Shown here: piece by piece, positions 34,136-57,211 of the stretch
Numbering within the stretch: position 1 is the stretch's first letter
How the letters are laid out: every line of letters begins with the position of its first letter
NCBI GenBank assembly: GCA_905213895.1
Contig: CAJMKE010000002.1
Location: 30,124-94,123, forward strand
Source: an uncultured Alistipes sp.
Lineage (GTDB): Bacteria > Bacteroidota > Bacteroidia > Bacteroidales > Rikenellaceae
DNA length: 64,000 nt
Direction: 5' to 3'
The notes under the pieces: generated by a model
What the model saw: the letters and a program-made list of their open reading frames with translations, nothing else
Told to the model about the DNA's origin: nothing
Database searches by the model: none
Made by a program: the position numbers and the translations under genes

Positions 34136-34197
34136 CCCCCCCCGACAACAAATAATGCGGGAACGAAATTCCCGCATTATTTTATCAGGTCAGACGG

Positions 34198-37599: not shown

Positions 37600-37944
37600 A
37601 TGCCACGTTCAGTCAATGCTGTTGCGTCCCGCGCAAGAAGAAAAAAGGTTTTGAAACTTGCCAAAGGCAACTTTGGTTCAAGGGGAAACGTTTGGACGGT
37701 AGCGAAAAACACCGTCGAAAAGGGTTTGCAGTTTGCCTATGCACACCGCCAACTCAAAAAGCGCACATTCCGTTCGTTGTGGATTACGCGTATCAACGCC
37801 GCAGTCCGCGCCCAGGGAATGACGTATTCCGAATTTATCGGTAAAATCAACGCCAAAGGCATCGCCCTCAACCGCAAGGTTCTGGCAGATTTGGCGATGA
37901 ACGAGCCGAAAGCATTCGAGGCGATTGTAAAAGCAGTTAAATAG
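37600..37944 (+). CDS. rplT: 50S ribosomal protein L20
   Basis: [23 protein letters not shown] is the canonical L20. Confidence 0.95.
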
Positions 37945-38000
37945 CACTTTTGCATCACGCAAAAGCGGGTCGGGCGGCATGCGTGCCGCCCGATTTTTTT
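37945..38000 (+). terminator. Rho-independent terminator(s) after rplT
   Basis: Two hairpins are CTTTTGC-ATCAC-GCAAAAG and CGGGCGGCATGCGTGCCGCCCG. A T7 run follows. Confidence 0.7.
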
Positions 38001-38294
38001 AATCATATATACTTTATATTATATTGACATCATTTTGGACATAACGACGGGTTGTCGAAATATGATGTAAAATGGTATATATTAGTCCTTATTATATATG
38101 TTGCTTGCTCCTGCGAACATGCTCTGGCGACGCCGTCCGTGCGTTGCGTAGGCATATTGCGCGGATGATTCCGAATGCCGCCCAACTTTTGTCGAAATAC
38201 GAAAATATGCTGTGTTTTTATACGATAAAGTTTATTTTTTTGACAATTTCCGAGTCGTATATACAACTGGTTGATAATCAATATAAAAATTTTC

Positions 38295-38305
38295 GGGGGG
38301 GGGGG
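38295..38305. repeat. G11 homopolymer about 30 bp upstream of the candidate -33 element of the polysaccharide-locus promoter
   Basis: TTTTCGGGGGGGGGGGATTTTTG lies in AT-rich intergenic DNA. Confidence 0.9.
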
Positions 38306-38335
38306 ATTTTTGCAATAAAAAACACTACGAAATAT

Positions 38336-38366
38336 TTGGATTAAAGTATTATTTCATATACTTTTG
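38336..38366 (+). promoter_or_regulatory. Candidate Bacteroidota sigma-A promoter of the CPS locus (-33 TTTG at 38336-38339, -7 TACTTTTG at 38359-38366)
   Basis: The spacer is 19 bp. A leader of about 170 nt before upxY is usual for UpxY-regulated loci. Confidence 0.45.
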
Positions 38367-38540
38367 CGCTTGATATAGTACGGTTTCTTTTACAGAAACG
38401 TGCAAGATCGGATTTTACAGGCAATAAACTTCATACGGATATACTTATAACTGCTTGATGCATAGACTTGTATTGTATCAGGCAGGATTAGAGGAATTGC
38501 CATTCGGAGAATATAAAGCCCTGATACGGTTTCCGCAGCC

Positions 38541-39089
38541 ATGACACAAAAAGCCGAAACGACCGCACGCTGGTATGTGATGCGCGACCTTAAACGCCCG
38601 AATGCGAAGATGCCTGCATACCGACAACTTTCGGATGCCGGCATGGAGGTCTTCACGCCGATGCGTCAGGTACTTAAAGTCCGCAACGGCAGACGTATCC
38701 GCGAGAGCGTACCGTTTATCCGCGACCTGCTGTTCGTCCGCGAAATGCGCGCCGTTCTCGACCCGATAGTCGAAAAGACGCCGACGCTCCAATACCGCTA
38801 CCGCCGCGGCGGCGAATACCGTGAACCGATGGTCGTCGCCGACGCCGACATGGATATTTTCATGCGCGCCGTCGCCTGCTCGTCGAATCCGCGCTATTAT
38901 CTGCCGCAAGAACTTACTCCGTCGATGTGCGGATGTACGGTTCGGGTTGTCGGAGGCGTTCTCGACGGCTACGAAGGCAGACTGTTGAGCATCCGTGGTT
39001 CGCGCACCAAAAGACTTCTGGTGGAACTGCCGGATTTCGTAACCGTCGCCATCGAAGCCGACTTCGAATACGTGCAGATAATCAAATGA
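38541..39089 (+). CDS. upxY: UpxY-family NusG-like transcription antiterminator (CPS locus leader gene)
   Basis: The NusG N-domain is WYVMRDLKRP...VFTPMRQV and the KOW motif is VRVVGGVLDGYEGRL. It is the first gene of a polysaccharide operon. Confidence 0.7.
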   Translation: MTQKAETTARWYVMRDLKRPNAKMPAYRQLSDAGMEVFTPMRQVLKVRNGRRIRESVPFIRDLLFVREMRAVLDPIVEKTPTLQYRYRRGGEYREPMVVADADMDIFMRAVACSSNPRYYLPQELTPSMCGCTVRVVGGVLDGYEGRLLSIRGSRTKRLLVELPDFVTVAIEADFEYVQIIK

Positions 39090-39172: not shown

Positions 39173-41110
39173 ATGCAACGACTGATAACCAAATTGCATT
39201 TGGAGCGTTATTTGAGTTCCAAACTGATTCTCTGCATCGACCTTGCGATTTCCGTCATGGCATCGCTGGTCGCGCTCATAATCGTACACCTGCTCTTCGG
39301 AGGCGGCATCTCGAACCGTTTTGCACTGGTATGGCTGGTCGGCGCGACGGTATTCTCGCTGCTGCTGTATTATGTACTGAAAACATACCGCTTTATCATC
39401 CGCCATTCCACGCTGCGCGAAATCGCCAAGTTCGTGCTTGCGACTTTCGGCAAAGAGGTGCTGCTGGGATTGAGCGTGCCGGTGTTCGCCCGCGGCATCG
39501 TCGGGGGGGGGAATACGGCGGTATTGCTGCTGCTCGATTTCCTGCTTACGCTCTGTGCGCTGGTCGTGGTGCGCGTGATGATGATAGTCGGTTATGACCT
39601 GATAAAACACCGGTTGAAACGTCGCAGCAATTGCAGCCGTGTGCTGATTTACGGTACGGGCGACAAATCGGTGGCGTTGGTCATGCGTTTGCAGAACTCG
39701 CCGCACTACGAAGTGTCGGGATTCCTGACCTACGGACCGCGTCTGAAAAACCACATGCTCGCCCAACACAGCGTCTACTATTTCGAGAGTGCGGGCAACG
39801 TGAAGTATCTTCGCGGACGCTACGACATCGACGCCATATTGTTCGCCACCGAATCGGAAGCGCAGTCGGAACAGGAACGCCTGCTCAAATACGCCACCGA
39901 CAACGACATAAAGATACTCATCGCCCCTCCGATAGACGAGGTCGTGGGCGGCAGACTGATGAAGTCGTCCATCCGCGAAATCAAAATCGAGGATTTGCTG
40001 GGTCGTCCCGAGATAAAGATTTCGCTCGACGAGATAATCGCCGACTTCCGCGGCAAGACGATTATGGTAACCGGTGCCGCAGGCTCGATAGGCTCGGAGT
40101 TGTGCCGCCAGTTGGCGACGTTCGGCATCAGGAAACTCGTGCTGTTCGACAACTCCGAAACGCCGATGCACAACATCCGTCTCGAACTTGAAGAGCGTTT
40201 TCCGGAACTCGACTTCTCGCCCGTAATCGGCGACGTCCGCATTCCGGCACGTCTCGATTTCGTCTTCCGCACCTATCGCCCGCAGGTGGTCTTCCACGCC
40301 GCAGCCTACAAGCATGTGCCGCTGATGGAGGAGAACCCGTGCGAAGCGGTGCTGGCGAATGTCGCCGGTTCGCGCAACGTAGCCGACAAGTGTCTGGAAT
40401 ACGGCGTCGAGAAGATGGTGATGATTTCGACCGACAAGGCTGTGAATCCGACAAACATCATGGGTTGCACCAAGCGTCTGGCGGAGATTTACGTGCAGTC
40501 GCTGGGTCTTGCCGTCGAGCAGGGCAGGATAAAGGGACGGACGAGATTCGTAACCACGCGCTTCGGCAACGTTCTCGGCTCGAACGGCTCCGTAATCCCT
40601 CGTTTCCGCGAACAGATTGCAAAGGGAGGTCCGGTAACGGTAACGCACCCCGACATCACGCGTTTCTTCATGACCATTCCCGAAGCCTGCCGTCTGGTGA
40701 TGGAGGCTGCGACGATGTCCACCGGCACGCAGATATTCGTGTTCGACATGGGCGAATCGGTGAAGATTGCGCATCTGGCGAAACGCATGATAGAACTCGC
40801 CGGCTTCGAACCGGGCAAGGACATCAAAATCGAGTATACGGGTCTGCGACCGGGCGAGAAACTCTACGAGGAGGTGCTTTCCAATACGGAGAATACCCTG
40901 CCGACCTCGCACGACCGCATCCGCATCGCCAAGGTGCGCGAGTACGACTACGCCGACGCCTGCCGCGCCGCCGACATGCTCGAAACCCTCTCCCGCGAGG
41001 TGAACATACCCGACATGGTCCGACTCATGAAATCGACCGTCCCAGAGTTCATATCAAAGAACTCTCGGTTCGAGGTGTACGATAAAATAACGGAGTCAGT
41101 AAATAGTTAA
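39173..41110 (+). CDS. Membrane-anchored UDP-sugar 4,6-dehydratase, CapD/WbpM/PglF family
   Basis: Four N-terminal TM helices precede two Rossmann domains (VLIYGTG, MVTGAAGSIGSEL). The start is taken at MQRLITKLH, since the ORF track start at 38927 overlaps upxY. Confidence 0.8.
   Translation: MQRLITKLHLERYLSSKLILCIDLAISVMASLVALIIVHLLFGGGISNRFALVWLVGATVFSLLLYYVLKTYRFIIRHSTLREIAKFVLATFGKEVLLGLSVPVFARGIVGGGNTAVLLLLDFLLTLCALVVVRVMMIVGYDLIKHRLKRRSNCSRVLIYGTGDKSVALVMRLQNSPHYEVSGFLTYGPRLKNHMLAQHSVYYFESAGNVKYLRGRYDIDAILFATESEAQSEQERLLKYATDNDIKILIAPPIDEVVGGRLMKSSIREIKIEDLLGRPEIKISLDEIIADFRGKTIMVTGAAGSIGSELCRQLATFGIRKLVLFDNSETPMHNIRLELEERFPELDFSPVIGDVRIPARLDFVFRTYRPQVVFHAAAYKHVPLMEENPCEAVLANVAGSRNVADKCLEYGVEKMVMISTDKAVNPTNIMGCTKRLAEIYVQSLGLAVEQGRIKGRTRFVTTRFGNVLGSNGSVIPRFREQIAKGGPVTVTHPDITRFFMTIPEACRLVMEAATMSTGTQIFVFDMGESVKIAHLAKRMIELAGFEPGKDIKIEYTGLRPGEKLYEEVLSNTENTLPTSHDRIRIAKVREYDYADACRAADMLETLSREVNIPDMVRLMKSTVPEFISKNSRFEVYDKITESVNS
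39503..39511 (+). repeat. G9 homopolymer inside the capD-like CDS (encodes GGG in IVGGGNTA); currently in frame
   Basis: The context is ATCGTCGGGGGGGGGAATACG. Confidence 0.9.
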
Positions 41111-41131
41111 AAAGTGCATTTGGAGAATTTT

Positions 41132-41139
41132 GGGGGGGG
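41132..41139. repeat. G8 homopolymer in the intergenic region upstream of the GT2 gene
   Basis: The context is GAGAATTTTGGGGGGGGACTAAAAAAC. Confidence 0.9.
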
Positions 41140-41330
41140 ACTAAAAAACTTGTAAGGTGGTGCTATCCCAGTATTTCTACAGAATGACAAATTTAATATC
41201 TATCTGTAAAAACTAAATTTCGTTCTCCTTACAGCGAATTAAATATGACAAATAATGTTTAGGTAAATACGCAATATTGGGTTCGAATAAAATTATGACC
41301 TTTTATTACGATCTTAAGATTGATAACGCG

Positions 41331-42335
41331 ATGAATATAAAAGTAAGCATTATAGTTCCAGTTTATAATGTCAAACAATATCTTTCTCGATGTCTTACCT
41401 CCCTTGTAAATCAGACATTAAATGATATTGAAATAATTGTGGTAGATGATGGCTCTACTGATGGAAGTGAGCATATTATTGATGAATTTGCATTACGTTT
41501 TTTTAAAATAATGCGTGTTATTCATAAAGAGAATGGCGGATTGATGTCTGCGTGGACAACAGGAGTAAAAGCCGCCAAAGGGGAATACATAGGCTTTATT
41601 GATAGTGATGATTATGCAGCAGTAGATATGTTTGAAAATTTATATAAGTTAGCAACATCGAGCAATGTTGATATCGTTATCAGCAATTATATCGTAAATG
41701 GTATCGCATTGGGGACTCATCCAATTAAAGAAGGGCGATATGAAGGCGAACAATTAGTAAACATTTTCAAAAAGCACGTTTTCCCATCGCCGTATACATA
41801 TTCGATATCGATGTCAAGAATGCCTAAATTATTCAAGCGTCATATTATTACAGATAATCTAATATATACGGAAAGTTTAAGTAAAACATTTGAAGATCGT
41901 TATATAACTCCGGCAGCAATATTAAGTGCTCAATCAATATATTATACACCAAAGGGATATTATTATTGGATGCTTCGAAAAAATTCCAATCATGGTATGT
42001 ATAAAGAGCATTTGTTGGACGATATAAAACGGGTGTATAATGTGCAATATCAAATTATTCATGATAAACAATTATCGTTGGAGCAAATTTGGGAGGAGGC
42101 TTATTTAGATTTCATTCGTTTATATGTAGACAGAAATATTATAAAGGTGGAATCGCTATTTACAAAAATTAAATCTGCAAAAGAACTTTTAAACGATAAA
42201 CTGACAAAAGCAAGGCTTGATAAATACGGGCATTTATTGAGGAATAAGTTAGGTAAAGCAGTAATGATTTCGTATAAACTAAATTCTCCGGTCCTTCTTG
42301 CCGTATCGAGTTATTTGACCAGATCCGTTGACTGA
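41331..42335 (+). CDS. Glycosyltransferase family 2
   Basis: It has MNIKVSIIVPVYN...IEIIVVDDGSTDGS and a DSDD (DxD) motif. The start is taken at the Met before KVSIIVPVYN. Confidence 0.75.
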   Translation: MNIKVSIIVPVYNVKQYLSRCLTSLVNQTLNDIEIIVVDDGSTDGSEHIIDEFALRFFKIMRVIHKENGGLMSAWTTGVKAAKGEYIGFIDSDDYAAVDMFENLYKLATSSNVDIVISNYIVNGIALGTHPIKEGRYEGEQLVNIFKKHVFPSPYTYSISMSRMPKLFKRHIITDNLIYTESLSKTFEDRYITPAAILSAQSIYYTPKGYYYWMLRKNSNHGMYKEHLLDDIKRVYNVQYQIIHDKQLSLEQIWEEAYLDFIRLYVDRNIIKVESLFTKIKSAKELLNDKLTKARLDKYGHLLRNKLGKAVMISYKLNSPVLLAVSSYLTRSVD

Positions 42336-43861
42336 TGAGGAAGCCGTCTCTTAATGAACAAAGTGCTCTGAATGTCATTGGCAGTATCGTTGTAGTTGCT
42401 ATTAACGTTACTATCAATTTAGTGCTTTCTCCTTATATAGTAAAACATTTGGGAGTGGAAGCGAATGGGTATATTACGTTAGCCAATAACTTCGTGTCAT
42501 ATTTGACTATGGTGTCTATAGCATTAAATTCCATGGTCGGAAGGTTTATTTTAATAGATAATCGCAGAGGATATCAACAATCGGCTAATGAATATTACAG
42601 TTCTGTGTTGATTGGAGATTGGATAATGGCAATGGTATTCTTTATGCCAATGTTATTATTTGTTGTTTTTATTGACAGATTAATTAAAGTCCCAGACCAA
42701 CTTATATGGGACATAAGAATCCTGTTTGGGATAGTATTCTTCAATTATATTATTCAACTTTGTGTTCCGCAGTGGCAGACGGCGACCTACTGTACTAATA
42801 ATTTATATTTGCGGTCGTTGAAGAATGCGGTTTCCAATATTATTCGAGCAGTCTCTGTTTATTTGTTGTTTAGGCTGTTTACCCCTCATAGTTATTATGT
42901 CGCAGTGTCGGCGACATTTATGACGATTGTCAGTTTGTCGATCGATTATACTTTTTATAAAAAGTTAATGCCGGAATTGAAGTGGAGTATTTCGTGGTTC
43001 AGATGGAAAAAAGTTAAAGAATTAGTGTCGTCGGGTATATGGAATACGATTTCGCAATGCGGAAATCTACTATTGGAAGGATTCGATATTTTAATTGCTA
43101 ATATTTTCATCAATCCAGTAGCGGCAGGAGTTTTGGCTTTATCCAAGATGATTCCCAATATGATTAATCAAATAACTGGAACTGTGTCTACAACTTATGG
43201 CCCTCGACTGACATATCTATATGCCGATGGGAAAATAAATCAAATGGAGAATGAGATTAAAAATAATATTGTGTTGCTTTCAGTACTTTCGAATATACCC
43301 ATTGGAACTTTCTTCGTATTCGGGATTCCATTCTTTAAACTTTGGGTACCATCACAGGATGCATTTCAACTTACAGTCTTGTCCTCTTTGTCCTTATTAG
43401 GTTTACTCTTTGCAGGATTGGCACAATGTTATGTTAATATTTTCGGTGTTGTGAACAAGTTAAAACTTAACTCACTCATGATAGTTGGTTCAGGTTTAAT
43501 AAATTTGACATGTGTATTTTTATTATTGAAATATAGTTCGTTAGGGATATATTCCGTTGTAATAACGAGTTCGGTAATAACAATTATACGAATTATGACA
43601 TTCGTTATTCCATATTCCGCCCGTCTTATCGATACATCCAGTTGGAAATTGACAATATATCTACTGCGAGGTGCGATCAATGTTGTAATCCCGATTGGCA
43701 TAGGGCTAATATTCAGGTGTTTAATTGAAATAGACGGATGGGGAGGTCTTGTAACTGCAATCGGCGGTACAGCAATTATATCCGCACTTATTTATATGAT
43801 AGTCGTTTTAAATAGAAATCAGAGAGAGACGGTTCTTAGAATATTCCATGTAATTCAATAA
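42335..43861 (+). CDS. wzx: Wzx-type oligosaccharide flippase (MOP superfamily polysaccharide biosynthesis protein)
   Basis: The 508-aa protein has about 12 TM helices and is in a polysaccharide locus. Confidence 0.7.
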   Translation: MRKPSLNEQSALNVIGSIVVVAINVTINLVLSPYIVKHLGVEANGYITLANNFVSYLTMVSIALNSMVGRFILIDNRRGYQQSANEYYSSVLIGDWIMAMVFFMPMLLFVVFIDRLIKVPDQLIWDIRILFGIVFFNYIIQLCVPQWQTATYCTNNLYLRSLKNAVSNIIRAVSVYLLFRLFTPHSYYVAVSATFMTIVSLSIDYTFYKKLMPELKWSISWFRWKKVKELVSSGIWNTISQCGNLLLEGFDILIANIFINPVAAGVLALSKMIPNMINQITGTVSTTYGPRLTYLYADGKINQMENEIKNNIVLLSVLSNIPIGTFFVFGIPFFKLWVPSQDAFQLTVLSSLSLLGLLFAGLAQCYVNIFGVVNKLKLNSLMIVGSGLINLTCVFLLLKYSSLGIYSVVITSSVITIIRIMTFVIPYSARLIDTSSWKLTIYLLRGAINVVIPIGIGLIFRCLIEIDGWGGLVTAIGGTAIISALIYMIVVLNRNQRETVLRIFHVIQ

Positions 43862-43957
43862 TTATTACATATAAAATTAGGACCGACATACATTTTATTG
43901 ATAAGTTGCTAAACAACACTATATTTAGCGGTGTATTGATTTCATAAAAAATAATAT

Positions 43958-44689
43958 ATGAACATTTCAGTAATATTTGCGGGTGGTGTTGGCACCCGTA
44001 TGAATACAAAATCTCGTCCCAAGCAGTTTTTGGATCTGAATGGCAAACCTATTATTGTATATACAATTGAACTGTTTGAGAATCATCCCGATGTAGACGG
44101 CATAATCGTAGTATGTTTAGAGAGTTGGATCCCTTTTCTTCGTAAAATGCTTAAAAAATTCGAGATTACCAAAGTCGTTAGAATTGTTTCCGGAGGAGTA
44201 TCAGGTCAAGACTCTATATATAACGGTCTGTGTGCAGCAGAAGATTATGTCAAGGAACAAGGTGAAAGTAATGCTATAGTAATGATTCATGACGGAGTGC
44301 GTCCTTTGATAACAGAAGACACGATTACAGACAATATTGAAAAAGTTAAGGAGTGCGGAAGTTGTATTACGGTCGTTCCTGCTACCGAGACTTTTGTAGT
44401 AACTCACGAAGACGGTTCATTGGAACTGCCATCACGTTCGCTCTGTAAACTTGCTCGTGCACCGCAAAGTTTTTATCTGAATGATATCATTAGTGCGCAC
44501 CGAAGAAGCAGAAAAGAGGGTTTGACAGGATTTATCGATTCGTGTTCATTAATGAGTTACTATGGCTATAAATTGGGATTGATCGAAGGTCCTATGGAAA
44601 ACATTAAAATTACAACACCTACTGATTATTTCGTGTTTCGCGCAATGGTTGAAGTGCATGAAAATCAGCAAATATTCGGAATATACTGA
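43958..44689 (+). CDS. IspD/TarI-like nucleotidyltransferase (CDP-alcohol forming, e.g. ribitol-5-phosphate cytidylyltransferase)
   Basis: It has VIFAGGVGTRMNTKSRPKQFL...HDGVRPL. It overlaps the next gene at ATGA. Confidence 0.7.
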   Translation: MNISVIFAGGVGTRMNTKSRPKQFLDLNGKPIIVYTIELFENHPDVDGIIVVCLESWIPFLRKMLKKFEITKVVRIVSGGVSGQDSIYNGLCAAEDYVKEQGESNAIVMIHDGVRPLITEDTITDNIEKVKECGSCITVVPATETFVVTHEDGSLELPSRSLCKLARAPQSFYLNDIISAHRRSRKEGLTGFIDSCSLMSYYGYKLGLIEGPMENIKITTPTDYFVFRAMVEVHENQQIFGIY

Positions 44690-45686
44690 TGACACAAAGA
44701 CTTTATCAATTCGATATTCTCAAAGGAATAGGGATACTTTGCGTGTTGCTGGGGCATAGTGCTTTGAGTGGATTCCCCAAAGAGATCATATATGGTTTTC
44801 ATATGCCATTATTCTTTTTCTGTTCAGGAGTCTTCTTTAAAGATAGAAATTTGCGTGAAACTATAACTAAAAGCATAAAGCAACTCTTATTTCCATATTT
44901 GTTTTTCCTTTTGGTGTTATTGTCATGCGATTTTGTACTTTATCTGAAAGCGACACATAGTCTTTACGAAACGGTTATATCCATATATAATAGTATAAAT
45001 TGTCCTTTAAACGAAGATTGCCGCTTGTATTTAACGATTTGGTTTTTACCTTGTCTTTTTATTGTAAGAATATTATACGCGTTATTGTATAGGTGTTGCA
45101 AATGTAATGAGGGAAAACTATTGGCAATATCTATTATTGCCGGGGGGGGTATTTTATCGGTAATCATATAACCTTACCTTTTTTTCTCGATTCTGCAATT
45201 AGTTGTTTAATATACTATCATTTCGGTTATTGTTTTTATAAATATAATCTGTATAAAATCCGATTAGCATTACGATGGACAATACTTTTAGGGTTTTTAT
45301 ATATTCTTACTGTAGCATTGTTACATCCGCATGTCGATCTGAAGTATAACACATTCCCGTTCTATCTAATTATACTATCATCGATGGCAATCATCGTATT
45401 GTATCAGTTCAGTTTGTTTTTATCGAAAGAGTCGAATGTAATTTCTGCTTTTTTGATTAAATGCGGTAATTGCAGCCTTACGATGTTGGGTTTGCATAGA
45501 CCGGTTTGGTTATTCGTATATCCGATATGCTTGAAATTTGAATTTAACGAGTATATGCTAATAATAGTTGAAATGATTACTGCGGTGTCGTTTATACGAT
45601 TAGCGGATAAAATACTTAACAAATACGCTCCGACCTTGATAGGTAAACAAAATAACAATCTTGTATATTGTAAACAGCGCATATGA
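44689..45686 (+). pseudogene. Acyltransferase-3 family (OafA-like O-acyltransferase) gene interrupted by a frameshift at a G8 tract; candidate phase-OFF gene
   Basis: ORF 44689..45171 has the AT3 N-terminal motif FDILKGIGILCVLLGH. ORF 45318..45686 in frame +1 carries the remaining TM helices. Hand translation shows that reading a ninth G at 45142-45149 gives a continuous 332-aa ORF with no stop across 45150-45320. Confidence 0.65.
45142..45149 (+). repeat. G8 homopolymer at the frameshift point of the acyltransferase-3 gene
   Basis: The context is ATTGCCGGGGGGGGTATTTTATCG. Confidence 0.9.
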
Positions 45687-46702
45687 ATGCTCAACTTGAA
45701 GATGATATCTTGGAATACTCTCAAACTTTTCCTTTTGCGGATAAATTGAGAGATGCATCCTTTATGATTACCGGTGCAACGGGATTGATCGGTTCCATAC
45801 TTGTCAGATGCTTATTGGCATTAGACCGGAATATCAGTATCACTATTCCGGTTCGCAATTTTGAGAAGGCTGTTACCCTATATGGGAAAGATGCAGCGAA
45901 GATTAAAATCATACCGTGCAATCTATGTGATTATATCGAATCTTTGGAAGACCATTTCGATTTTATCATTCATTGTGCGAGTCCTACTTCGGGAAAGTAT
46001 GTGAATGAACATCCTGTCGAGACTTTCGAGTTGGCGATAGAGAGTACACGCGCATTATTGAAATATGCCAAGTCTAACGATGTTAAGAGTTTCGTTTATG
46101 TCAGTTCGCTAGAATACTATGGTCAAAATAATGACAATAGGTTTATTACGGAAGAAATGCAGGGTTATATAGATCCAGTAAGTCCTCGATCCTCATATCC
46201 TATGGGCAAGCGAGCGGCAGAATATTTATGTTTTGCATACGCTTCCGAATACGCAGTACCCGTAAAGATTGCCAGGCTTACGCAGACTTTCGGAGCAGGT
46301 GTGTCTAGTGATGACAATAGAGTTTTCGCACAGTTTGCGAGATGTGTTCTAAACGGGAAGGATATAGTGATGCACTCTACTGGAGAGTCTGCTAAACCTT
46401 ATTGTTATACTACGGATTGTGTATCTGCAATTCTATATATTTTATTAAAAGGTGAGAATGGAGAATCATATAATGTCGCGAATCAGAGTACATATATAAG
46501 CATTGCTGAGATGGCAGAATTCCTTAAGACAAGATTCAATTCCACTATAGATGTCCGTATAGAGCAGCATCCGGAAATGGGCTATGCTCCTATCACGAAA
46601 CTTCGTTTATCTACTGAAAAATTGAATGGCCTGGGCTGGACTCCTAAAATAGGCTTGGAAGAAATGTACAAAAGGCTTTTAGCATCGTTTAAATATGCAT
46701 AG
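45683..46702 (+). CDS. NAD-dependent epimerase/dehydratase family (extended SDR)
   Basis: It has ITGATGLIGS, YxxxK (YPMGK) and an upstream S. Confidence 0.7.
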   Translation: MNAQLEDDILEYSQTFPFADKLRDASFMITGATGLIGSILVRCLLALDRNISITIPVRNFEKAVTLYGKDAAKIKIIPCNLCDYIESLEDHFDFIIHCASPTSGKYVNEHPVETFELAIESTRALLKYAKSNDVKSFVYVSSLEYYGQNNDNRFITEEMQGYIDPVSPRSSYPMGKRAAEYLCFAYASEYAVPVKIARLTQTFGAGVSSDDNRVFAQFARCVLNGKDIVMHSTGESAKPYCYTTDCVSAILYILLKGENGESYNVANQSTYISIAEMAEFLKTRFNSTIDVRIEQHPEMGYAPITKLRLSTEKLNGLGWTPKIGLEEMYKRLLASFKYA

Positions 46703-46796
46703 GAATTATCTTAATTTTAAGATTGTAAGTTTCTCTCATTCTTTTCACTGTAATCAAATATTATTTAACGAACGAAGTTTATAACATTGTCTATTA

Positions 46797-47627
46797 ATGG
46801 ATAATAGAAGTAAAATGACACTCCAAGAGCATAAACAAGTAATGCTTGGTATTCTTTTGGAATTTACTAAATTTTGCGATCGACACGGCTTAATGTATTA
46901 TTTGGATGCGGGGACGCTTATCGGTGCTGTACGTCATAAGGGATTCATCCCTTGGGATGATGATATTGATGTCAACATGCCGTATTGTGATTATGATAAG
47001 TTCATTTATATTACAAAGCAATCCGGAGGTTATATGACTGAACATCTTAGAGTGGAATATCCAGAAGAAACTATATATCCGTTTTTGAAAATTTCCGATG
47101 ACAGAACCATTCTTGTGGAATTTCCCGAGAAAAATCCGATGGAGGTTGGCGTATACATCGATGTATTTCCCAAATATGGAATAAAGGATAAGAAATGGAA
47201 ATCCAGAATGGTATGTAAAATCTCTGAGCTGTTAGGACTTTTCCACTGGTTTTCTTCTTATAGCATTTATGCCTGGCGTCGTCCCGGTCATAACATATTA
47301 AAAAAAACGATGGCAGCGATAGGTCGATTGTTGTTTCCGCAAGAGAAATTTTCTACACGAATTCAAAATTGGTTTATGCATCAATATGCAAAACACCACC
47401 CAGCCGAAAATTGCCAGTACGTAACGACTCTTACCAACGGTGAGTTCAATAAATTGGCTCCGAGGGCTTGTTTTGATGGATTCCAATGGTTGGAATTCGA
47501 AGGCTATAAATTTAAAGCACCAAAAGATTTTGATACATATCTGCATTGTTTGTATAGTGGGGATTATATGCAACTACCACCCGAAAATAATAGAGTGCAT
47601 CATGATATTATAGTTTATTGGAAATAG
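46797..47627 (+). CDS. licD: LicD-family phosphotransferase (polyol-phosphate / phosphocholine transferase)
   Basis: YYLDAGTLIGAVRHKGFIPWDDDIDVNMP is the LicD signature. Confidence 0.75.
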   Translation: MDNRSKMTLQEHKQVMLGILLEFTKFCDRHGLMYYLDAGTLIGAVRHKGFIPWDDDIDVNMPYCDYDKFIYITKQSGGYMTEHLRVEYPEETIYPFLKISDDRTILVEFPEKNPMEVGVYIDVFPKYGIKDKKWKSRMVCKISELLGLFHWFSSYSIYAWRRPGHNILKKTMAAIGRLLFPQEKFSTRIQNWFMHQYAKHHPAENCQYVTTLTNGEFNKLAPRACFDGFQWLEFEGYKFKAPKDFDTYLHCLYSGDYMQLPPENNRVHHDIIVYWK

Positions 47628-47635
47628 AATACTAT

Positions 47636-48739
47636 ATGGTTAAGAAGTTTTGCATTCTGCTTTTTATGATAGCGTGCTCTGCTACAATTTATTATAATGG
47701 ATTAGATAACAATACTTCTAAAATGCTTGCCATGGCTTGCTTCGGAGTACTGTTTCTGTTTGCCGTCTTTGACCAAATCAAACGTCGTCAATTATTGTCT
47801 TTATTCAAGAGATGGTTGGCTTGGATTATCTTGGCAATGACAGTTAATATGTTGTACGGTCTACCAGCAAACTCAATTCTTGAAATCGTATTTCCTTTGG
47901 TAGTAGCATTTGAGTCTTATCAGTTATTGGATATTCCGCGAAATCAATGGAGTGTATTTTTTCTTCCGTTATGCGTATTTTCATCTGTTTGTGCCGTATG
48001 GTCTGTATTATATGGTTTAGGTTCTTTATCTATTGCTGAATATTATGACAACGACATCGCGAAGAATCAAATAGGTGCGGCATTTACGACGTTTGCAATT
48101 ATCAGTGCCATGTTTGTAGTGGAGGAAAAACGATTGCTCTTGAAAATCCTTTTTACGGTTGCATCTATTGTAAATCTTTATCCGGCATTATGTTTCACAT
48201 GTCGTACTGCACTGCTATGTTATGCTTTTGTGGTTTGCTTTATTCTATTTCGGGTTTATGGATGGAGAGGTTTTATTGTAATCCCTATTATATTGTTAGT
48301 AATTGTTGGCTTGGGCGGTAACAATCTAGGCAATTTATTATACGAATCTATTGTAGGCACTCGGGACATAAATGATGCCGATGACATTTCTTCCGGTCGA
48401 ATAACATATGCAAAAGCCTCTCTCGATTATTTTTTAGAGCATCCGTTCTTCGGATATTACGGGGCTATGGATGGAAGTAATATGCCTCCCAATGCGCATA
48501 TTTTTTTGTTATATAGACTAACGAAATGGGGACTTTTAGGCTCAATACCGTTTCTGGCCTTATATTTTAGTATTATAAAAATTTTCTTTAAGAGCATTAA
48601 ACATAGAGAAATATTGGTGATGGGAACACTGTTCCTTGCATTAATGGAAAGTTTCTCGGAGTATTCTCCTCCGTTCGGTCCCGGCTCTTGCTTTATACCT
48701 GTTTTTATGATAGTCGGAATGTATTTGCGAAATAAATAA
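47636..48739 (+). CDS. wzy: Wzy-like polysaccharide polymerase (O-antigen polymerase/ligase family membrane protein)
   Basis: About 10 TM helices and a large periplasmic loop are present. The start is taken at MVKKF. Confidence 0.45.
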   Translation: MVKKFCILLFMIACSATIYYNGLDNNTSKMLAMACFGVLFLFAVFDQIKRRQLLSLFKRWLAWIILAMTVNMLYGLPANSILEIVFPLVVAFESYQLLDIPRNQWSVFFLPLCVFSSVCAVWSVLYGLGSLSIAEYYDNDIAKNQIGAAFTTFAIISAMFVVEEKRLLLKILFTVASIVNLYPALCFTCRTALLCYAFVVCFILFRVYGWRGFIVIPIILLVIVGLGGNNLGNLLYESIVGTRDINDADDISSGRITYAKASLDYFLEHPFFGYYGAMDGSNMPPNAHIFLLYRLTKWGLLGSIPFLALYFSIIKIFFKSIKHREILVMGTLFLALMESFSEYSPPFGPGSCFIPVFMIVGMYLRNK

Positions 48740-48744
48740 TAAAA

Positions 48745-49833
48745 ATGAAAATAAATAAAATACTTGTTATCGATGGGGCCATGGTATCAAGATCTCCGCA
48801 TGTAAAAATGTATCTTAATGCTTTGGATAATTTGGGGATCGAATATGATGTCATCGGTTGGAATAGAAAGGGTGATGATTTGTCGGATGTTCCTAACAAT
48901 TACTATATTTATGATAATCCAACCGATGATCATTATCCGGTGTGGCGAAAAATTTGGGAGATATATGGATTTTATAAATATTTCCAAAAAAATTTAGGCG
49001 GTGATGAGTACAAAGCAGTAATAATCTTCGAGATTGCCAATACTATTCTTTTTACTCATTTTTTAGAACGTAAATATAAAAATAGATATATATTTGATAT
49101 CAGGGATTATTCTCCGGTTTGTAAATTCTGGCTCGCGCGAGTTATACTATCAAAGTTAATAAACAATTCGTATAGAACTGTGATATCTTCGGCTGGTTTT
49201 AAAACTTGGCTTCCCAAATGTTATGATTATCTGATTTCTCACAATATTGACATAAAATATTTTAATAATCTGAAGAACAGTCCATTCGTGGATTTCCATG
49301 CTCCGTTGCGGATATTGACGATTGGAAATTTGAGAGATCCCGAAATTAATTGTGAATTAACGAGAAGTTTCGGAAACGATATGAATTTTGACATGAGGTT
49401 TGTCGGATATGGTTATGCGGGTCAGATAATTCAAAAATTTTGTTCAAACAACAATATTGCTAACGTATCATTTCATGGACGTTATAAAAAATCAGAAGAG
49501 ATATCGTTTTATGAAGATGCGGATATAATAAACTGTTGTATGGGCAACAATATGTTAAGTAATTATTTGATGTCTAATCGAATTTATCTTGCAGCACTTC
49601 TGCGAAAACCGATTATTTGTATAAAAGGATCTTATCAATCCAATATTGTGCAGCAATACAACCTCGGTTGCATCGTAAATAATATAAATAACATGAAAAA
49701 TGAATTACAGGAATATTTAGATAGGTTTGATAGAATAAAATATTTGAATGGAGTTTCGTTGTTTTTGCAAATGGTTGAAATTGACCAAAAGAAATATTTG
49801 AATCAAATTGAAGAATTAACCGAGTTAGAATGA
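48745..49833 (+). CDS. Hypothetical protein, possible GT-B-like glycosyltransferase
   Basis: The 362-aa protein is very AT-rich. No firm motif was recognised. Confidence 0.3.
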   Translation: MKINKILVIDGAMVSRSPHVKMYLNALDNLGIEYDVIGWNRKGDDLSDVPNNYYIYDNPTDDHYPVWRKIWEIYGFYKYFQKNLGGDEYKAVIIFEIANTILFTHFLERKYKNRYIFDIRDYSPVCKFWLARVILSKLINNSYRTVISSAGFKTWLPKCYDYLISHNIDIKYFNNLKNSPFVDFHAPLRILTIGNLRDPEINCELTRSFGNDMNFDMRFVGYGYAGQIIQKFCSNNNIANVSFHGRYKKSEEISFYEDADIINCCMGNNMLSNYLMSNRIYLAALLRKPIICIKGSYQSNIVQQYNLGCIVNNINNMKNELQEYLDRFDRIKYLNGVSLFLQMVEIDQKKYLNQIEELTELE

Positions 49834-50450
49834 TGAGTATTAAATACATTTGGTCAAAACTGATAAAGAAACTCAGATTGAGTTCGATTATCAATAGTAA
49901 TATTCATAAAACTTCGACAATCGAGTCAGGCAGTAATGTCGTAAATGTTATAATGGACAAGTATTCCTATTGTGGATACGATTGCGAAATAGTTAATGCA
50001 AAAATAGGGGCATATTGTTCTATTGCCAATAATGTTACTATAGGCGGTGCTATGCATCCGATGGAATGGGCGAGCACTTCGCCAGTATTCTATTATGGTC
50101 GTGATAGTGTCAAAAAAAAGTTCGCATCATTCCATCGTGCGGAACACAAGAAAACAATTATAGGGAATGATGTATGGATTGGGGGGGGGAGTTTTATAAA
50201 GCAGGGTGTCCGTATTAGCGACGGAGCGGTCGTGGGGATGGGATCAATCGTTACTAAAGATGTCCCACCTTATGCTATTGTCGCTGGAAATCCAGCCAAA
50301 TTAATTCGTTATCGTTTTGACGACGAAACTATAAATAAACTGTTGAAGTCAGAATGGTGGACATTGGAAGACGAAGATTTGACGGTTTTCGCTCGTAATA
50401 TTCGAGAACCAATGCTGTTCGCTGATTCGATAATAACAAGTAGACTGTAA
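49830..50450 (+). CDS. Hexapeptide-repeat (left-handed beta-helix) O-acetyltransferase, Vat/LacA/CysE-like
   Basis: The hexapeptide repeats include IGAYCSIANNVTIGG and IGNDVWIGGGSFI. Confidence 0.7.
   Translation: MMSIKYIWSKLIKKLRLSSIINSNIHKTSTIESGSNVVNVIMDKYSYCGYDCEIVNAKIGAYCSIANNVTIGGAMHPMEWASTSPVFYYGRDSVKKKFASFHRAEHKKTIIGNDVWIGGGSFIKQGVRISDGAVVGMGSIVTKDVPPYAIVAGNPAKLIRYRFDDETINKLLKSEWWTLEDEDLTVFARNIREPMLFADSIITSRL
50181..50189 (+). repeat. G9 homopolymer inside the acetyltransferase CDS (encodes GGG in WIGGGSF); in frame
   Basis: The context is TGGATTGGGGGGGGGAGTTTT. Confidence 0.9.
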
Positions 50451-50469
50451 ATATTTAATAACACGATTT

Positions 50470-51615
50470 ATGTCAGAAAGATCTTATCAAGTGTGTACCC
50501 ATTGTGTAATGGATACAAGCGACAAAAATATCCTATTCGATGAGAATGGGGTATGTATGCGATGCAAGGAATATGAAGAGAGTATCTTACCTTGGTGGAA
50601 TTACGGAAAAGGGCACGAAGCAGAATTACAGACCATAATCAATCGCATCAAAAATGATGGTAAAGGCAAGGAGTACGATTGTATACTCGGCATGAGCGGA
50701 GGGTTGGACAGTTCTTATATGCTCCATTTGGCGGTGAAGGAATGGGGACTTCGTCCGTTTGTGTTTCACATCGATGCTGGATGGAATCTTCCCGTTGCCG
50801 AAGAAAATATTCGCAAGATGTGTGATAAACTCGGTGTCCACCTGCATATACAGAAACTGAACTGGGAAGAATTGAGACAAATGCAGATCGCTTTCTTCAA
50901 GACCGGTCATGCAGGATTGGATGTCCCCCAAGATCATTCGTTCATAGCCCAAATAGATAAATATTCCGAAGAACTTGGCGTCAAATACATTCTTAATGGT
51001 TATAACATCTGTACTGAAATCATTGCGGATCCGGAATCATGGTTTGAAGGTGCTGGTCCAACTGCAGATAAAACATATGTAAAGGATGTATTGAAAAAAC
51101 ATGGTGGTGTTCATACGAAAGATTATACTTACACAACAGGTTTCAAGCACAAGTTTGTACTACCGTATATTAAAGGTGTTAAGACATTGCAATTATTGAA
51201 TTACGTAGAATTCACAAAACAATCTATGATCGAGACTCTGCAAAAAGAGTATGATTATCAACCGTACGGTCAAAAACATTTTGAGGATTTGCTTACGAAG
51301 TTTCTTGAAGCGTGGTGGTTGCCGAAACGTTTCGGCTTTGATATAAGAAGAGCGCAGTTGTCGAGTCTTGTGATAACCGGTCAGATGTCGAGGGATGACG
51401 CATTAAAAATTCTTGAAACACCTCCGGTGCCTGAAAAGGAATGTATGGAAATGTTTAAGGAGGTCTGCCGTAGATTGGAGATCAGTGAAGAAGAATTGAT
51501 GTCTTATTTTAATTTGCCTAAAAAGTATAGGCATTATAAAAACAATTCATGGGCATTTGCAGTCGGTATTAAATTGTACCAATTTTTGGGTCTCGACAGA
51601 AGAATCAGAAAGTAA
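50470..51615 (+). CDS. N-acetyl sugar amidotransferase (PP-loop ATP pyrophosphatase, WbpG/WbuX-like)
   Basis: An N-terminal Cys cluster (CTHC...CMRC) precedes the SGGLDSS PP-loop. Confidence 0.65.
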   Translation: MSERSYQVCTHCVMDTSDKNILFDENGVCMRCKEYEESILPWWNYGKGHEAELQTIINRIKNDGKGKEYDCILGMSGGLDSSYMLHLAVKEWGLRPFVFHIDAGWNLPVAEENIRKMCDKLGVHLHIQKLNWEELRQMQIAFFKTGHAGLDVPQDHSFIAQIDKYSEELGVKYILNGYNICTEIIADPESWFEGAGPTADKTYVKDVLKKHGGVHTKDYTYTTGFKHKFVLPYIKGVKTLQLLNYVEFTKQSMIETLQKEYDYQPYGQKHFEDLLTKFLEAWWLPKRFGFDIRRAQLSSLVITGQMSRDDALKILETPPVPEKECMEMFKEVCRRLEISEEELMSYFNLPKKYRHYKNNSWAFAVGIKLYQFLGLDRRIRK

Positions 51616-51659
51616 TGCAATTGTTATTTAATGCTTTTATTTGGGACTGAGGTATCAAT

Positions 51660-52868
51660 ATGAATATTCTTTTTCTGACGCTTTCACATATTACTGATAT
51701 TCATGAGCGGAGCATATATAATGATCTGGTGCGAGAATTAATGCGAAGAGGTCATAGTGTGTATATTGCATCTCCGACAGAAAGGCGATATGCCATGCCG
51801 ACGCAATCGTATGAAAGTAATGGAGCACATATTCTAAATATCAAAACTCTCAATATTCAGAAAACAAATATAATAGAGAAAGGTATCGGTACATTGATCA
51901 TAGAATATCAATTCGATTATGCCATAAGTAAGTATTGGTCTGATATAAAGTTTGATTTAGTTCTTTACTCAACACCTCCAATTACTTTTAACAGAATCAT
52001 AGCCAAAGTGAAACGTCGTTGCGGGGCACGGAGTTATTTGATGCTCAAAGATATCTTCCCTCAGAATGCCGTCGACCTCGGAATAATGAAAGAGGGTGGG
52101 CTACTACACAGGATATTCCGTCGTAAAGAGAAGCAACTGTATGAGTTATCGGATCGAATCGGGTGCATGTCTCCCGCCAATTGCCGATATGTAATAAAAC
52201 ATAATACTCATGTTGATCCTGTAAAAGTAGAGATTTGTCCTAATGCAATTGAAGTGATACCACAAACCGAGATTTCAATTGTCGAAAAATCGATACTGTT
52301 ATCTAAATATGGAATTCCGTTTGACAAAACATTATTCATTTACGGTGGTAATCTCGGGAAACCTCAAGGATTGGAGTTTTTAATAAACGTATTAGCAATA
52401 AATGAAAAACGCACGAACAGTTTTATCGTGATAGTTGGTTCTGGAACAGAATATCCAATGTTATCCGCATGGTTTGACAAGTACAAACCGTATAATTCTA
52501 AACTTGTATCCACTCTTGAAAAAAAAGAGTATGATAGACTTGTCGGGATTTGTGATGTAGGATTAGTTTTTCTTCATCCTAAGTTTACTATCCCGAATTT
52601 CCCGTCTCGAATTCTCAGTTATCTTGAAAATAAAATGCCGGTTCTGTTGGCCACAGATATAAACACCGATGTCGGTAAAATAGCAGAAGACAATGGCTTT
52701 GGCTTTTGGTGCGAAAATGGTGATATAGAAATGTTTGAAAAACTAATGGATAAATTTTCCGATTTATCTACTATAAAAAAAATGGGGCAGAGAGGTTATG
52801 AATTCCTTGTTGATAATTATCAAGTTTCCAATGCTTGTGATATTATTTTAGATCAAAAGAAAAAATAA
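51660..52868 (+). CDS. Glycosyltransferase family 4 (WbuB-like, candidate L-FucNAc transferase)
   Basis: It has a GT-B fold and the C-terminal E..G.P motif region. It co-occurs with fnlABC-like genes. Confidence 0.65.
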   Translation: MNILFLTLSHITDIHERSIYNDLVRELMRRGHSVYIASPTERRYAMPTQSYESNGAHILNIKTLNIQKTNIIEKGIGTLIIEYQFDYAISKYWSDIKFDLVLYSTPPITFNRIIAKVKRRCGARSYLMLKDIFPQNAVDLGIMKEGGLLHRIFRRKEKQLYELSDRIGCMSPANCRYVIKHNTHVDPVKVEICPNAIEVIPQTEISIVEKSILLSKYGIPFDKTLFIYGGNLGKPQGLEFLINVLAINEKRTNSFIVIVGSGTEYPMLSAWFDKYKPYNSKLVSTLEKKEYDRLVGICDVGLVFLHPKFTIPNFPSRILSYLENKMPVLLATDINTDVGKIAEDNGFGFWCENGDIEMFEKLMDKFSDLSTIKKMGQRGYEFLVDNYQVSNACDIILDQKKK

Positions 52869-52878
52869 GCATTAAAAT

Positions 52879-53487
52879 ATGTATCGTTGTTTTTTCAAAA
52901 GAGTAATAGATTTTTCGGTTGCTTTTTGTGGACTGCTTTTCATAGGTTGGCTTCTTGCTGTCATTGCACTTTGGCTTTATTTTGCGAATAAAGGTGCTGG
53001 CGTTTTCTTTACTCAGGAACGTCCCGGTAAGGGTGCTAAAATTTTCAAGGTCATAAAATTCAAAACCATGACTGACGAACGCGACGCAGACGGCAATCTT
53101 TTGCCGGACGAAAAACGTCTGACAGAGGTCGGTCGGTTCGTGCGTTCGACTTCTATCGATGAATTGCCACAACTTTGGAATGTTTTTAAAGGAGATATGT
53201 CGTTAATCGGACCGAGACCATTGCTCGTACAATATCTTCCTTTATACTCTCCGGAACAGGCGCGTAGGCATGAGGTACGTCCTGGTATCACAGGGTGGGC
53301 GCAATGTCATGGTCGCAATGCCATATCTTGGCAGAAGAAATTTGAATTGGACGTGTGGTATGTCGATCACATCTCATTTATTACCGATTGTAAAGTGATT
53401 TGGAACACTATCCAGAAAGTATTGAAACGCGCAGATATATCATCGGAAACTTCAGCGACTATGGAGCCATTTAATGGAAATAATTAA
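52879..53487 (+). CDS. Initiating undecaprenyl-phosphate sugar-phosphate transferase (small bacterial sugar transferase, PglC/WcfS/WbaP-C-like)
   Basis: It has an N-terminal TM helix, then KVIKFKTM, PQLWNV..G.MS.VGPRP and GITGWAQ. Confidence 0.8.
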   Translation: MYRCFFKRVIDFSVAFCGLLFIGWLLAVIALWLYFANKGAGVFFTQERPGKGAKIFKVIKFKTMTDERDADGNLLPDEKRLTEVGRFVRSTSIDELPQLWNVFKGDMSLIGPRPLLVQYLPLYSPEQARRHEVRPGITGWAQCHGRNAISWQKKFELDVWYVDHISFITDCKVIWNTIQKVLKRADISSETSATMEPFNGNN

Positions 53488-53490
53488 TAC

Positions 53491-54132: not shown

Positions 54133-54145
54133 ATAATATTAGAAA

Positions 54146-55437: not shown

Positions 55438-56196
55438 ATGGAATACAATCCCTTTTCATTAAAAGATAAGACTATTCTTGTTACCGGCGCAAGCAGCGGG
55501 ATCGGTCGTGCAATTGCTATCGAGTGTTCCAAAATGGGCGCTGTTGTTGTTGCTTCGGCGAGAAATAGAGAACGTCTTGAACAAACGCTTTTCCAAATGA
55601 ATGGAGAAGGGCATTTATCGATAACCGCTGATCTTGGAGATGCGGATGATGTTGAGCGTATGGTAAAGCAGTTGCCGCAACTCGATGGTGTTGTACATTG
55701 TGCGGGTATTGGAGATCGAACGCTTGGCAAAATGGTTCGAGAAAAGGATATAGAAAGGGTGATGAAAACTAATTTTGACGCTCCGGTTCTTCTGCAACGC
55801 GCATTATTAAAAAAGAAACTCATAAAACAGTCTTCTTCAATAGTTTTCATCGCTTCTCGTGCGCCTTTTGCTCCGACAATTGGGAATGGTCTGTACGCAG
55901 CCTCTAAAGGTGCTATAATCGCTTACTCCAAAGTTCTTGGGTTGGAACTTGCTTCTCAAAAAATTCGAGTCAACTGCATATGTCCGGCAATGGTCTGGAC
56001 AGAACTTGTAGAACGTGATGCATTGCTGACTGGCGCCGATTATCATGAAGCGGAGAAAGCATATCCTCTCGGACGATATGGTCAACCCGAAGATGTAGCT
56101 TACTTATGCATATATTTACTATCTGACGCAAGTGGCTGGATGACTGGTAGTAGTGTGGATATAACTGGGGGGGGGGAATTCTCTCTAAAATCGTAA
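55438..56196 (+). CDS. SDR family 3-oxoacyl-ACP reductase (FabG-like)
   Basis: It has TGASSGIGRAIA and Y..xK (YAASK). Confidence 0.75.
   Translation: MEYNPFSLKDKTILVTGASSGIGRAIAIECSKMGAVVVASARNRERLEQTLFQMNGEGHLSITADLGDADDVERMVKQLPQLDGVVHCAGIGDRTLGKMVREKDIERVMKTNFDAPVLLQRALLKKKLIKQSSSIVFIASRAPFAPTIGNGLYAASKGAIIAYSKVLGLELASQKIRVNCICPAMVWTELVERDALLTGADYHEAEKAYPLGRYGQPEDVAYLCIYLLSDASGWMTGSSVDITGGGEFSLKS
56167..56176 (+). repeat. G10 homopolymer 20 nt before the stop of the FabG-like gene (encodes GGG in ITGGGEF); in frame
   Basis: The context is ATAACTGGGGGGGGGGAATTC. Confidence 0.9.
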
Positions 56197-56198
56197 GA

Positions 56199-57197: not shown

Positions 57198-57211
57198 ATC
57201 AAGAAAATCAG

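Follow-up and report, generated by a model that had tools for sequence, protein, structure and literature searches.

We describe here an acyltransferase-3 (AT3) gene of an uncultured Alistipes sp. that is probably a phase-variable contingency gene toggled by slippage in a poly-G tract. The gene lies at 44689..45686 in a stretch of 64,000 nt (contig CAJMKE010000002.1), called the window throughout, and belongs to a capsular polysaccharide locus. The window carries a run of eight G residues (G8) in this gene, which would correspond to the OFF state. Labels of the form L### denote public metagenome contigs that we fetched, and labels of the form P#### denote database proteins.

Frame anatomy of the AT3 gene

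The gene, its tract and the products of the window allele are as follows.
44689..45686, + strand: AT3-only acyltransferase gene, frameshifted and OFF in the window, 332 aa if the tract is G9
44689..45171, + strand: shortened 160-aa product of the G8 (OFF) allele, with its stop 7 codons past the tract
45142..45149, + strand: G8 tract, the putative switch itself, coding for Gly152-154 in the ON frame
45150..45686, + strand: C-terminal AT3 half in the +1 frame, untranslated from the G8 allele

An initial annotation of this DNA had reported that the AT3 gene is broken at the G8 run, that its N-terminal half ends 7 codons later and that one extra G restores an open reading frame (ORF) of 332 aa. 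All of this was borne out when the sequence was re-read. The tract at 45142-45149 is GGGGGGGG, flanked by CC on its 5' side and by TATTTT on its 3' side, and an ORF of 122 aa (45318..45686) lies in the frame gained by one added G. With the tract set to G9, a single 332-aa ORF spans 44689..45686, and G6 gives 331 aa, while G7, G8 and G10 give truncated products of 157, 160 and 158 aa, respectively. Unit changes of a repeat inside the ORF thus toggle between a full-length and a truncated product. In the G7 allele (for example L137 6069-6647, corresponding to window 45107-45686), two overlapping ORFs of 157 aa and 192 aa together span the entire AT3 protein.

The G9 translation matched Pfam PF01757 (Acyl_transf_3) as one AT3 protein with 74.2 bits (gathering cut-off 31, E 1.3e-20), over residues 6-292 and profile positions 2-312 of 326. 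In the profile search PF01757 was the sole domain, and the protein stops at residue 332 without an SGNH domain. The fused AT3-SGNH class (OafA/OafB/PglI, about 600 aa) was rejected on this ground. Of the earlier description as OafA-like, the shared AT3 domain therefore stands and the architecture does not; from its domain content, the protein is of the AT3-only type and resembles Oac, WbaK and WcjE (PMC9558356). Residues H23, M39-P40-L41-F42-F43, S46 and G47 were invariant in an alignment of 20 AT3 sequences, and a conserved N-terminal His and a FHMPLFFxxSG block are common to the protein and its relatives; catalytic roles of the conserved residues are described in the AT3 literature (PMC9558356).

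The 19 relatives, at 38-51% identity, are each one full-length polypeptide of 307-336 aa, as expected if the window gene is a single gene that has been split. The tract codes for Gly152-154 directly before the invariant Tyr155, a position at which relatives often, although not always, have one to three Gly residues. Since GGG makes up just 16% of the Gly codons across the locus, three GGG in a row amount to a codon choice that creates mutability.

The G8 run is also beyond chance. GGGGGGGG was matched 14 times in the window, in 7 tracts, whereas shuffles that preserve dinucleotides predict 0.33 matches and 0 of 100 shuffles reached 14. In the 34%-GC part of the capsule locus (41001-57200) we counted 4 tracts where 0.05-0.12 would be expected (Poisson P about 3e-6 to 8e-6). 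Because these counts lie far above the shuffle expectation, the G8 run of the AT3 gene is not a chance occurrence.

Tract-length alleles on identical backgrounds

We compared the window with 60 public metagenome contigs carrying the AT3 locus. The AT3 tract was G9 in 20, G8 in 37 and G7 in 4 of these sequences, the window included. Database proteins that cluster with the conceptual protein at 90% identity fell into three product classes, of 332 aa, 160 aa and 157 + 192 aa. The 332-aa members P0001, P0071 and P0074 are coded with G9 on at least 23 public contigs, and the 160-aa members P0069, P0075, P0076, P0078 and P0081 occur on at least 41. Among the latter, P0069 is identical to the 160-aa ORF of the window and was found on 16-23 public contigs. 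The G7 products are P0082 and P0079, one a 157-aa and one a 192-aa member.

Different tract lengths were found on the same nucleotide background. AT3 nucleotide haplotype 0 carried G9 in 10 contigs, G8 in 8 and G7 in 3, and haplotype 1 carried G9 in 8 and G8 in 8. Over 19,614 nt, L032 (G9) and L041/L042 (G8) had 0 mismatches and differed only by two 1-base gaps. One of these fell within the AT3 tract, the other within a G tract upstream of upxY, the first gene of the capsule operon. The pair L003 (G9) and L024 (G8) differed over 17,133 nt by 0 mismatches and a single gap, located in the AT3 tract; L005 and L024 likewise had 0 mismatches, with 2 gaps, in the AT3 tract and in that of a hexapeptide acetyltransferase gene of the same locus. 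Between L037 and L049 there was 1 gap in 9,519 nt, again in the AT3 tract.

Within clusters of contigs at most one single-nucleotide polymorphism (SNP) apart, the AT3 tract had changed independently at least 5 times, the upstream tract showed 4 changes and the hexapeptide tract 3. The contigs of lineage B contained all four combinations of upstream-tract and AT3-tract states, as expected for independent switches. Repeat number is thus polymorphic on near-identical genomes and exceeds other mutations. The comparison of tract length across related genomes, which the initial annotation had proposed, therefore gave a clear difference among otherwise identical contigs (0 SNPs over 17-19.6 kb). When Joint Genome Institute (JGI) metagenomes were scanned for the AT3 tract, with the number of G residues left variable, there were 0 matches.

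Gene maintenance and the pseudogene alternative

When the tract was set to G9, all 58 complete AT3 copies were intact, representing 10 nucleotide haplotypes with up to 6.9% locus divergence. No second lesion was found among the 38 OFF copies, and a disruption at a non-homopolymer site, which the initial annotation had named as a finding that would speak against a switch, was never seen: all OFF alleles map to the tract. With G7, G8 and G9 on 0-SNP backgrounds and no other lesion, its proposal of a slipped-strand phase switch gained support. We also calculated the ratio of non-synonymous to synonymous polymorphism (pN/pS) for the window lineage compared with the L131 lineage, each of which was seen only as G8. 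The whole gene gave a value of 0.21, and the part downstream of the tract one of 0.15 (14 synonymous and 8 non-synonymous changes). The latter value means that, over most of its history, the part of the AT3 gene past the frameshift was read in the G9 frame; the downstream half is under purifying selection, and the gene is kept despite its OFF states.

Several points nevertheless weigh against a phase switch. The haplotype of the window was found only as G8, in all 9 contigs fetched and with 23 on record for its 160-aa product, and its exact G9 translation was absent from a collection of about 15 billion proteins; the window lineage may thus have stayed OFF for long. The contigs were fetched by exact protein look-up, so that the proportions of ON and OFF alleles given above describe a biased sample, and the tract lengths come from assembled contigs alone. 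The samples came without metadata, and identical strains are possibly from related hosts or time series, which would support fast change and limit how many events can be counted as independent. Two-colour Illumina chemistry could formally have produced a G-specific artefact, although this is not expected to shift the consensus because coverage is 14-104x. Moreover, an NCBIfam search gave no named family for the AT3 protein, and for this reason the assignment of its substrate rests on gene context.

The G8-only record of the window haplotype would also suit a lineage-fixed pseudogene, in which G8 would mean that a dispensable decoration gene has in effect been lost for good. The divergent L131 lineage likewise showed only G8, and the C-terminal part compared between the window and L032 had a pN/pS of 0.93, from only 2 synonymous and 7 non-synonymous changes. 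Against this stand the lack of any second lesion in the OFF copies, the pN/pS of 0.15 past the tract for the two lineages known only as OFF, and the tract itself, which stays uninterrupted across 6.9% divergence. Sister haplotypes carry G7, G8 and G9 on 0-SNP backgrounds, and the contigs of the window haplotype are at most 1-2 SNPs apart and may represent a single circulating strain. We therefore regard a fixed pseudogene as unlikely.

Sequencing controls

Homopolymers are classic sites of indel errors, and both the G8 of the window and the G7/G8/G9 differences could in principle be length errors of sequencing or assembly. As internal controls, the A8 runs at 47300, 50112, 52519 and 52775 were invariant in 37/37, 31/31, 30/30 and 8/8 contigs, 106 observations in all, and the T7 runs within capsule genes were invariant as well. 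Upstream of upxY, the A9 run at 37074 and the T7 run at 38235 do vary in length among contigs, seemingly in line with lineage. Because the A8 runs of the same locus do not vary, the length variation is specific to G tracts and not generic homopolymer noise. In addition, the same G8 allele recurred in independent assemblies from several assemblers and sources (SPAdes NODE, MEGAHIT k141, Logan), the G tracts varied amid identical flanks of 17-19 kb, and coverage reached 104x. A platform error, the other finding that had been named in advance as speaking against a switch, is accordingly very improbable.

Programmed recoding, in which RNA polymerase slippage or +1/-1 ribosomal frameshifting would yield some full-length enzyme from G8, is favoured by the conserved downstream frame and by the ability of long homopolymers to induce transcriptional slippage, but we consider it highly unlikely, since in-frame G9 alleles are common in the DNA and account for that conservation with no need of recoding, a programmed site would have a fixed tract length, which this one lacks, and documented bacterial transcriptional slippage is mostly at A/T runs. 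No stimulatory structure was noticed, although no search was aimed at one.

The capsule locus and a proposed mechanism

Between 38.5 and 59.5 kb the window holds a Bacteroidales-type capsular polysaccharide locus, with all genes on the + strand. The following genes matter for the interpretation of the tracts.
38541..39089, + strand: UpxY-family (NusG-like) antiterminator, first gene of the operon (NF033644, 128.4 bits, cut-off 100; PF02357)
39173..41110, + strand: CapD/WbpM-like polysaccharide biosynthesis protein, 645 aa, with an in-frame G9 at 39503-39511
43958..44689, + strand: D-ribitol-5-phosphate cytidylyltransferase, TarI/IspD-like (NF001183, 180.3 bits, cut-off 166; PF01128)
45683..46702, + strand: epimerase/reductase of the short-chain dehydrogenase/reductase (SDR) type (PF01370, 142 bits)
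46797..47627, + strand: LicD-family phosphotransferase (PF04991, 137 bits)
49830..50450, + strand: hexapeptide-repeat O-acetyltransferase (CatB/Vat/WbbJ-like), with an in-frame G9 at 50181-50189, ON in the window
55438..56196, + strand: FabG-like SDR, 252 aa, with G10 at 56167-56176

As in UpxY-type loci, upxY comes first and is followed by Wzx, Wzy, glycosyltransferases (GT) and an initiating transferase, all on the + strand, with profile matches to Polysacc_synt (Wzx), Wzy_C, GT2, GT4 and Bac_transf. The gene order begins with upxY, the CapD-like gene, GT2, the Wzx flippase, the cytidylyltransferase, AT3, SDR, LicD and the Wzy polymerase. It continues with the hexapeptide acetyltransferase, a WbuX amidotransferase, GT4, the initiating transferase and a PglD-like gene, and ends with a module of acyl carrier protein (ACP), ketoacyl-ACP synthase III (KASIII) and FabG genes and a DegT aminotransferase. 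The initial annotation had placed the DNA in the Bacteroidales, which agrees with a neighbouring sulfatase that is 98% identical to one of an uncultured Alistipes metagenome-assembled genome (MAG) and whose next best matches are all from Alistipes.

The start of the AT3 gene overlaps the stop of the cytidylyltransferase gene (ATGA), and its stop overlaps the start of the SDR gene in the same way (ATGA). Because of these overlaps with both neighbours, we regard the AT3 gene as embedded in a CDP-ribitol/LicD module. The SDR at 45683..46702 is probably the partner of the cytidylyltransferase, and its gene context suggests a role as ribulose-5-phosphate reductase.

On this basis, we propose the following mechanism. 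Slipped-strand mispairing during replication would change the length of the poly-G tract, as known for contingency loci, and the change would be reversible within one clone. Cells with G9 would make the 332-aa membrane AT3 enzyme (ON), while those with G7 or G8 would make none (OFF). Following AT3 biology (PMC9558356), the enzyme would pass an acyl group across the membrane onto the capsule repeat unit. Since the AT3 gene lies between the ribitol-5-phosphate cytidylyltransferase and the SDR and LicD genes, the target may be a ribitol-phosphate-containing repeat, most likely O-acylated (acetylated) outside the cytoplasm. More speculatively, translation of the SDR gene, which overlaps the 3' end of the AT3 gene, may become uncoupled by the premature stop, and the promoter-proximal tract may modulate transcription. 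For the cytoplasmic hexapeptide acetyltransferase, G9 would be ON and G8 OFF, controlling a second decoration. Several states of capsule decoration and expression could then coexist in one population without DNA inversion. The window itself has the AT3 gene in the OFF state and both the CapD-like and the hexapeptide gene in the ON state.

An inversion switch, the mode for which Bacteroidales capsules are known, was considered and rejected for this locus. Upstream of upxY no invertible segment flanked by inverted repeats was found, the inverted repeats there being weak, AT-rich or terminator-derived. All 21 contigs compared were collinear over 37901-38700, the 800 nt on the upstream side of upxY, with no inverted segment, assemblies showing the majority orientation only.

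Two features of the locus were observed besides. At 41.1 kb the GC content falls from about 56-59% to about 34%. Another strain, L143 (ERZ827168), retains upxY, the CapD-like gene and the upstream tract (as G11), but in place of the whole 18.5-kb cassette (window 41086-59602) it has about 3 kb of different sequence; because of this replacement the capsule cassette is exchangeable, which is consistent with its low GC. Furthermore, window 54146-57197 holds a 77-aa ACP-like ORF, two KASIII genes and the FabG-like SDR within the capsule locus, an acyl module which suggests that a sugar is N- or O-acylated with a chain made locally.

Other G tracts in the locus

The capsule locus contains five further poly-G tracts that were missing from the initial annotation, and at least three of them vary in length. 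Two lie in the hexapeptide and FabG-like genes listed above, and the others are as follows.
38295..38305, + strand: G11 tract, 236 nt 5' of upxY and 4 nt 5' of promoter-like motifs
39503..39511, + strand: in-frame G9 tract in the CapD-like gene, which is ON in the window
41132..41139, + strand: intergenic G8 tract at the junction from 59% to 34% GC, 156 nt 5' of the GT2 gene

The upstream tract ranged from G8 to G12. It was G10, G11 or G12 among near-identical lineage-A contigs, and G8 or G9 in lineage-B contigs with 0 SNPs between them. Conserved on its 3' side are TTTG-19 nt-AAtaTTTG and then TTTG-20 nt-TAcTTTTG, resembling Bacteroidetes-type -33/-7 promoters; these motifs were read by eye from the alignment and serve as a lead only, as the Bacteroidales consensus differs from that of sigma-70. 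A second JGI scan, for this promoter-proximal tract, yielded only 3 loci. From its position, the upstream tract may gate or tune the entire capsule operon. The initial annotation had envisaged a switch that modifies a glycan without switching the whole locus. The tract upstream of upxY varies too, so that expression of the whole locus may be affected beyond acylation.

For the CapD-like gene, G9 gives 645 aa, G8 gives 134 aa and G10 gives 141 aa. The 16 contigs of lineage B have the interrupted but synonymous GGAGGAGGG in its place, as though the tract had been locked ON. The intergenic tract at 41132..41139 was G6 in 32 contigs, G7 in 3 and G8 in 9, tracking lineage, and it showed no change within clusters of contigs at most 1 SNP apart; the junction at which it lies parts the conserved upxY/CapD-like section from the variable cassette.

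In the hexapeptide acetyltransferase gene, G9 gives 206 aa and G8 gives 122 aa. Alleles with G8, in which the gene is split, were present in L005, L031, L034, L132 and L133, and the tract appears from these sequences to be a second, independent ON/OFF switch in the locus. The G10 tract at 56167-56176 lies 20 nt before the stop codon of the FabG-like SDR gene. Here G10 gives 252 aa and G9 gives 249 aa, with products that differ in their tail residues only, and the 249-aa product of L033 indicates a G9 allele. A change to G8 or G11 would fuse the SDR in frame with the next KASIII gene (585-586 aa).

Outside the capsule locus, the window has a C8 run at 34136-34143 between convergent genes, beside a terminator-like hairpin; at the corresponding site of L141 there is no run of 8 or more.

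Comparison with known systems

A close parallel in switch design is pglI of Neisseria meningitidis and N. gonorrhoeae, an AT3-family O-acetyltransferase gene for the pilin glycan with a poly-G switch in its ORF (PMC10425976, PMC9558356). Both cases combine an AT3 acyltransferase that decorates, or would decorate, a surface glycan with a poly-G tract inside the ORF. However, PglI comes from a betaproteobacterial pathogen, has its AT3 domain fused to an SGNH domain and modifies an O-linked protein glycan, whereas the Alistipes protein is AT3-only, 332 aa long and encoded in a Wzx/Wzy capsule locus with UpxY. No orthology between the two was detectable beyond the Pfam family. The oafA gene of Haemophilus influenzae is described in PMC9558356 (citing Fox et al. 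2005) as a phase-variable O-acetyltransferase gene for lipooligosaccharide (LOS), first seen frameshifted in a reference genome. It too is an AT3 gene set ON or OFF by a simple-sequence repeat in the ORF, but it uses a tetranucleotide repeat and targets LOS heptose rather than capsule.

For function, Streptococcus pneumoniae WcjE (serotype 11A) would be the nearest analogue of the Alistipes protein. It acetylates phosphoglycerol, and loss of its gene creates new serotypes (PMC9558356). Like WcjE and WciG, the Alistipes enzyme is a stand-alone AT3 protein of a Wzx/Wzy capsule locus, and the polyol-phosphate target of WcjE resembles the ribitol-phosphate module. Inactivation of wcjE in serotype 11E occurred through assorted mutations and not by way of a dedicated repeat, whereas the Alistipes OFF alleles all map to one G tract.

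Campylobacter jejuni has an AT-rich genome and is reportedly without mismatch repair. Poly-G contingency genes in its capsule and LOS loci are named in a review (PMC11868660). As in C. jejuni, the Alistipes locus has several G8-G11 tracts in one surface-polysaccharide locus, with combinatorial phasotypes, and tract length differs between otherwise identical isolates. Unlike C. jejuni, Alistipes is a Bacteroidales commensal of about 56% GC, and different genes are affected. Another gut commensal, Bifidobacterium breve, has a pilus switch based on replication slippage in poly-G (PMC9187656). It is likewise a G-tract ON/OFF switch of a surface structure, although this species is an actinobacterium and the switch concerns sortase-dependent pili rather than a capsule decoration enzyme.

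Within the Bacteroidales, the locus shares UpxY, the CapD-like gene, a variable Wzx/Wzy cassette and the goal of a variable capsule with the Mpi-type/UpxY-UpxZ capsule loci of Bacteroides. It differs from their invertible-promoter loci in varying by G-tract length. For Bacteroides capsule loci, reviews describe inversion only (PMC11868660, PMC12355684), and Patrick et al. (2010) speculated on a C4-to-C5 frameshift in a B. fragilis acetyltransferase (PMC3090145). Our literature search for poly-G or contingency loci in gut Bacteroidales returned work on inversion and this C4/C5 speculation only, and no report tying Alistipes to homopolymeric or slipped-strand phase variation was found. Within the literature searched, the mechanism is thus classical, and the clade and the type of locus are new.

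If the AT3 gene is a switch as proposed, some strain-level pseudogenes in Alistipes MAGs would be switch states and not gene loss, and a commensal that is abundant and disease-associated could change its phage receptors and antibody epitopes without gene gain or loss. Short-read metagenomes that already exist could be used to score ON and OFF states and to relate them to data on host, phage or inflammation. Metagenome tools for phase variation look for inversions and would therefore miss G-tract switches.

Poly-G tracts in other loci

A pig-gut metagenome contig, L144 (ERZ940711), carries an unrelated capsule locus that codes for an AT3 relative and contains four G8 tracts, one within 3882-4855 and the others at 9451, 11590 and 12635. 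One G8 splits another AT3 gene into ORFs of 82 aa and 230 aa, and G9 restores 324 aa. The database held exact matches to the G7 (60 aa), G8 (82 aa), G9 (324 aa, on at least 23 contigs) and G10 (61 aa) products of this gene. The remaining G8 tracts are in frame in two more AT3 genes and one GT1 gene. Judged from these alleles, the L144 gene appears to be a second, independent AT3 poly-G switch.

Taken more broadly, it is a real possibility, which we put forward tentatively, that capsules vary by means of a multi-tract poly-G 'phasome' in Alistipes and in one or more other lineages of gut Bacteroidales, with or without invertible promoters. The upstream G8-G12 tract would then tune or gate the locus, the CapD-like G9 could shut synthesis off, and the AT3 and hexapeptide tracts would toggle two decorations independently, giving combinatorial capsule states. 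Multi-locus repeat-based phase variation is reportedly restricted to pathogens (PMC11868660). A poly-G phasome, if true, would be a commensal counter-example with capsule states readable from metagenomes, and would offer a commensal test case for why such variation appears confined to pathogens.

Among 80 loci retrieved via the sulfatase, G/C runs of at least 8 were present in 3 of 7 Alistipes-like loci and in 1 of the 73 others, a 64%-GC Phycisphaerae locus. The runs in loci of related Alistipes MAGs are C12 in L051 (76-87), C9 in L053 (5225) and G9 in L054 (9732, 17849), and that of L051 is located just downstream of rplT.

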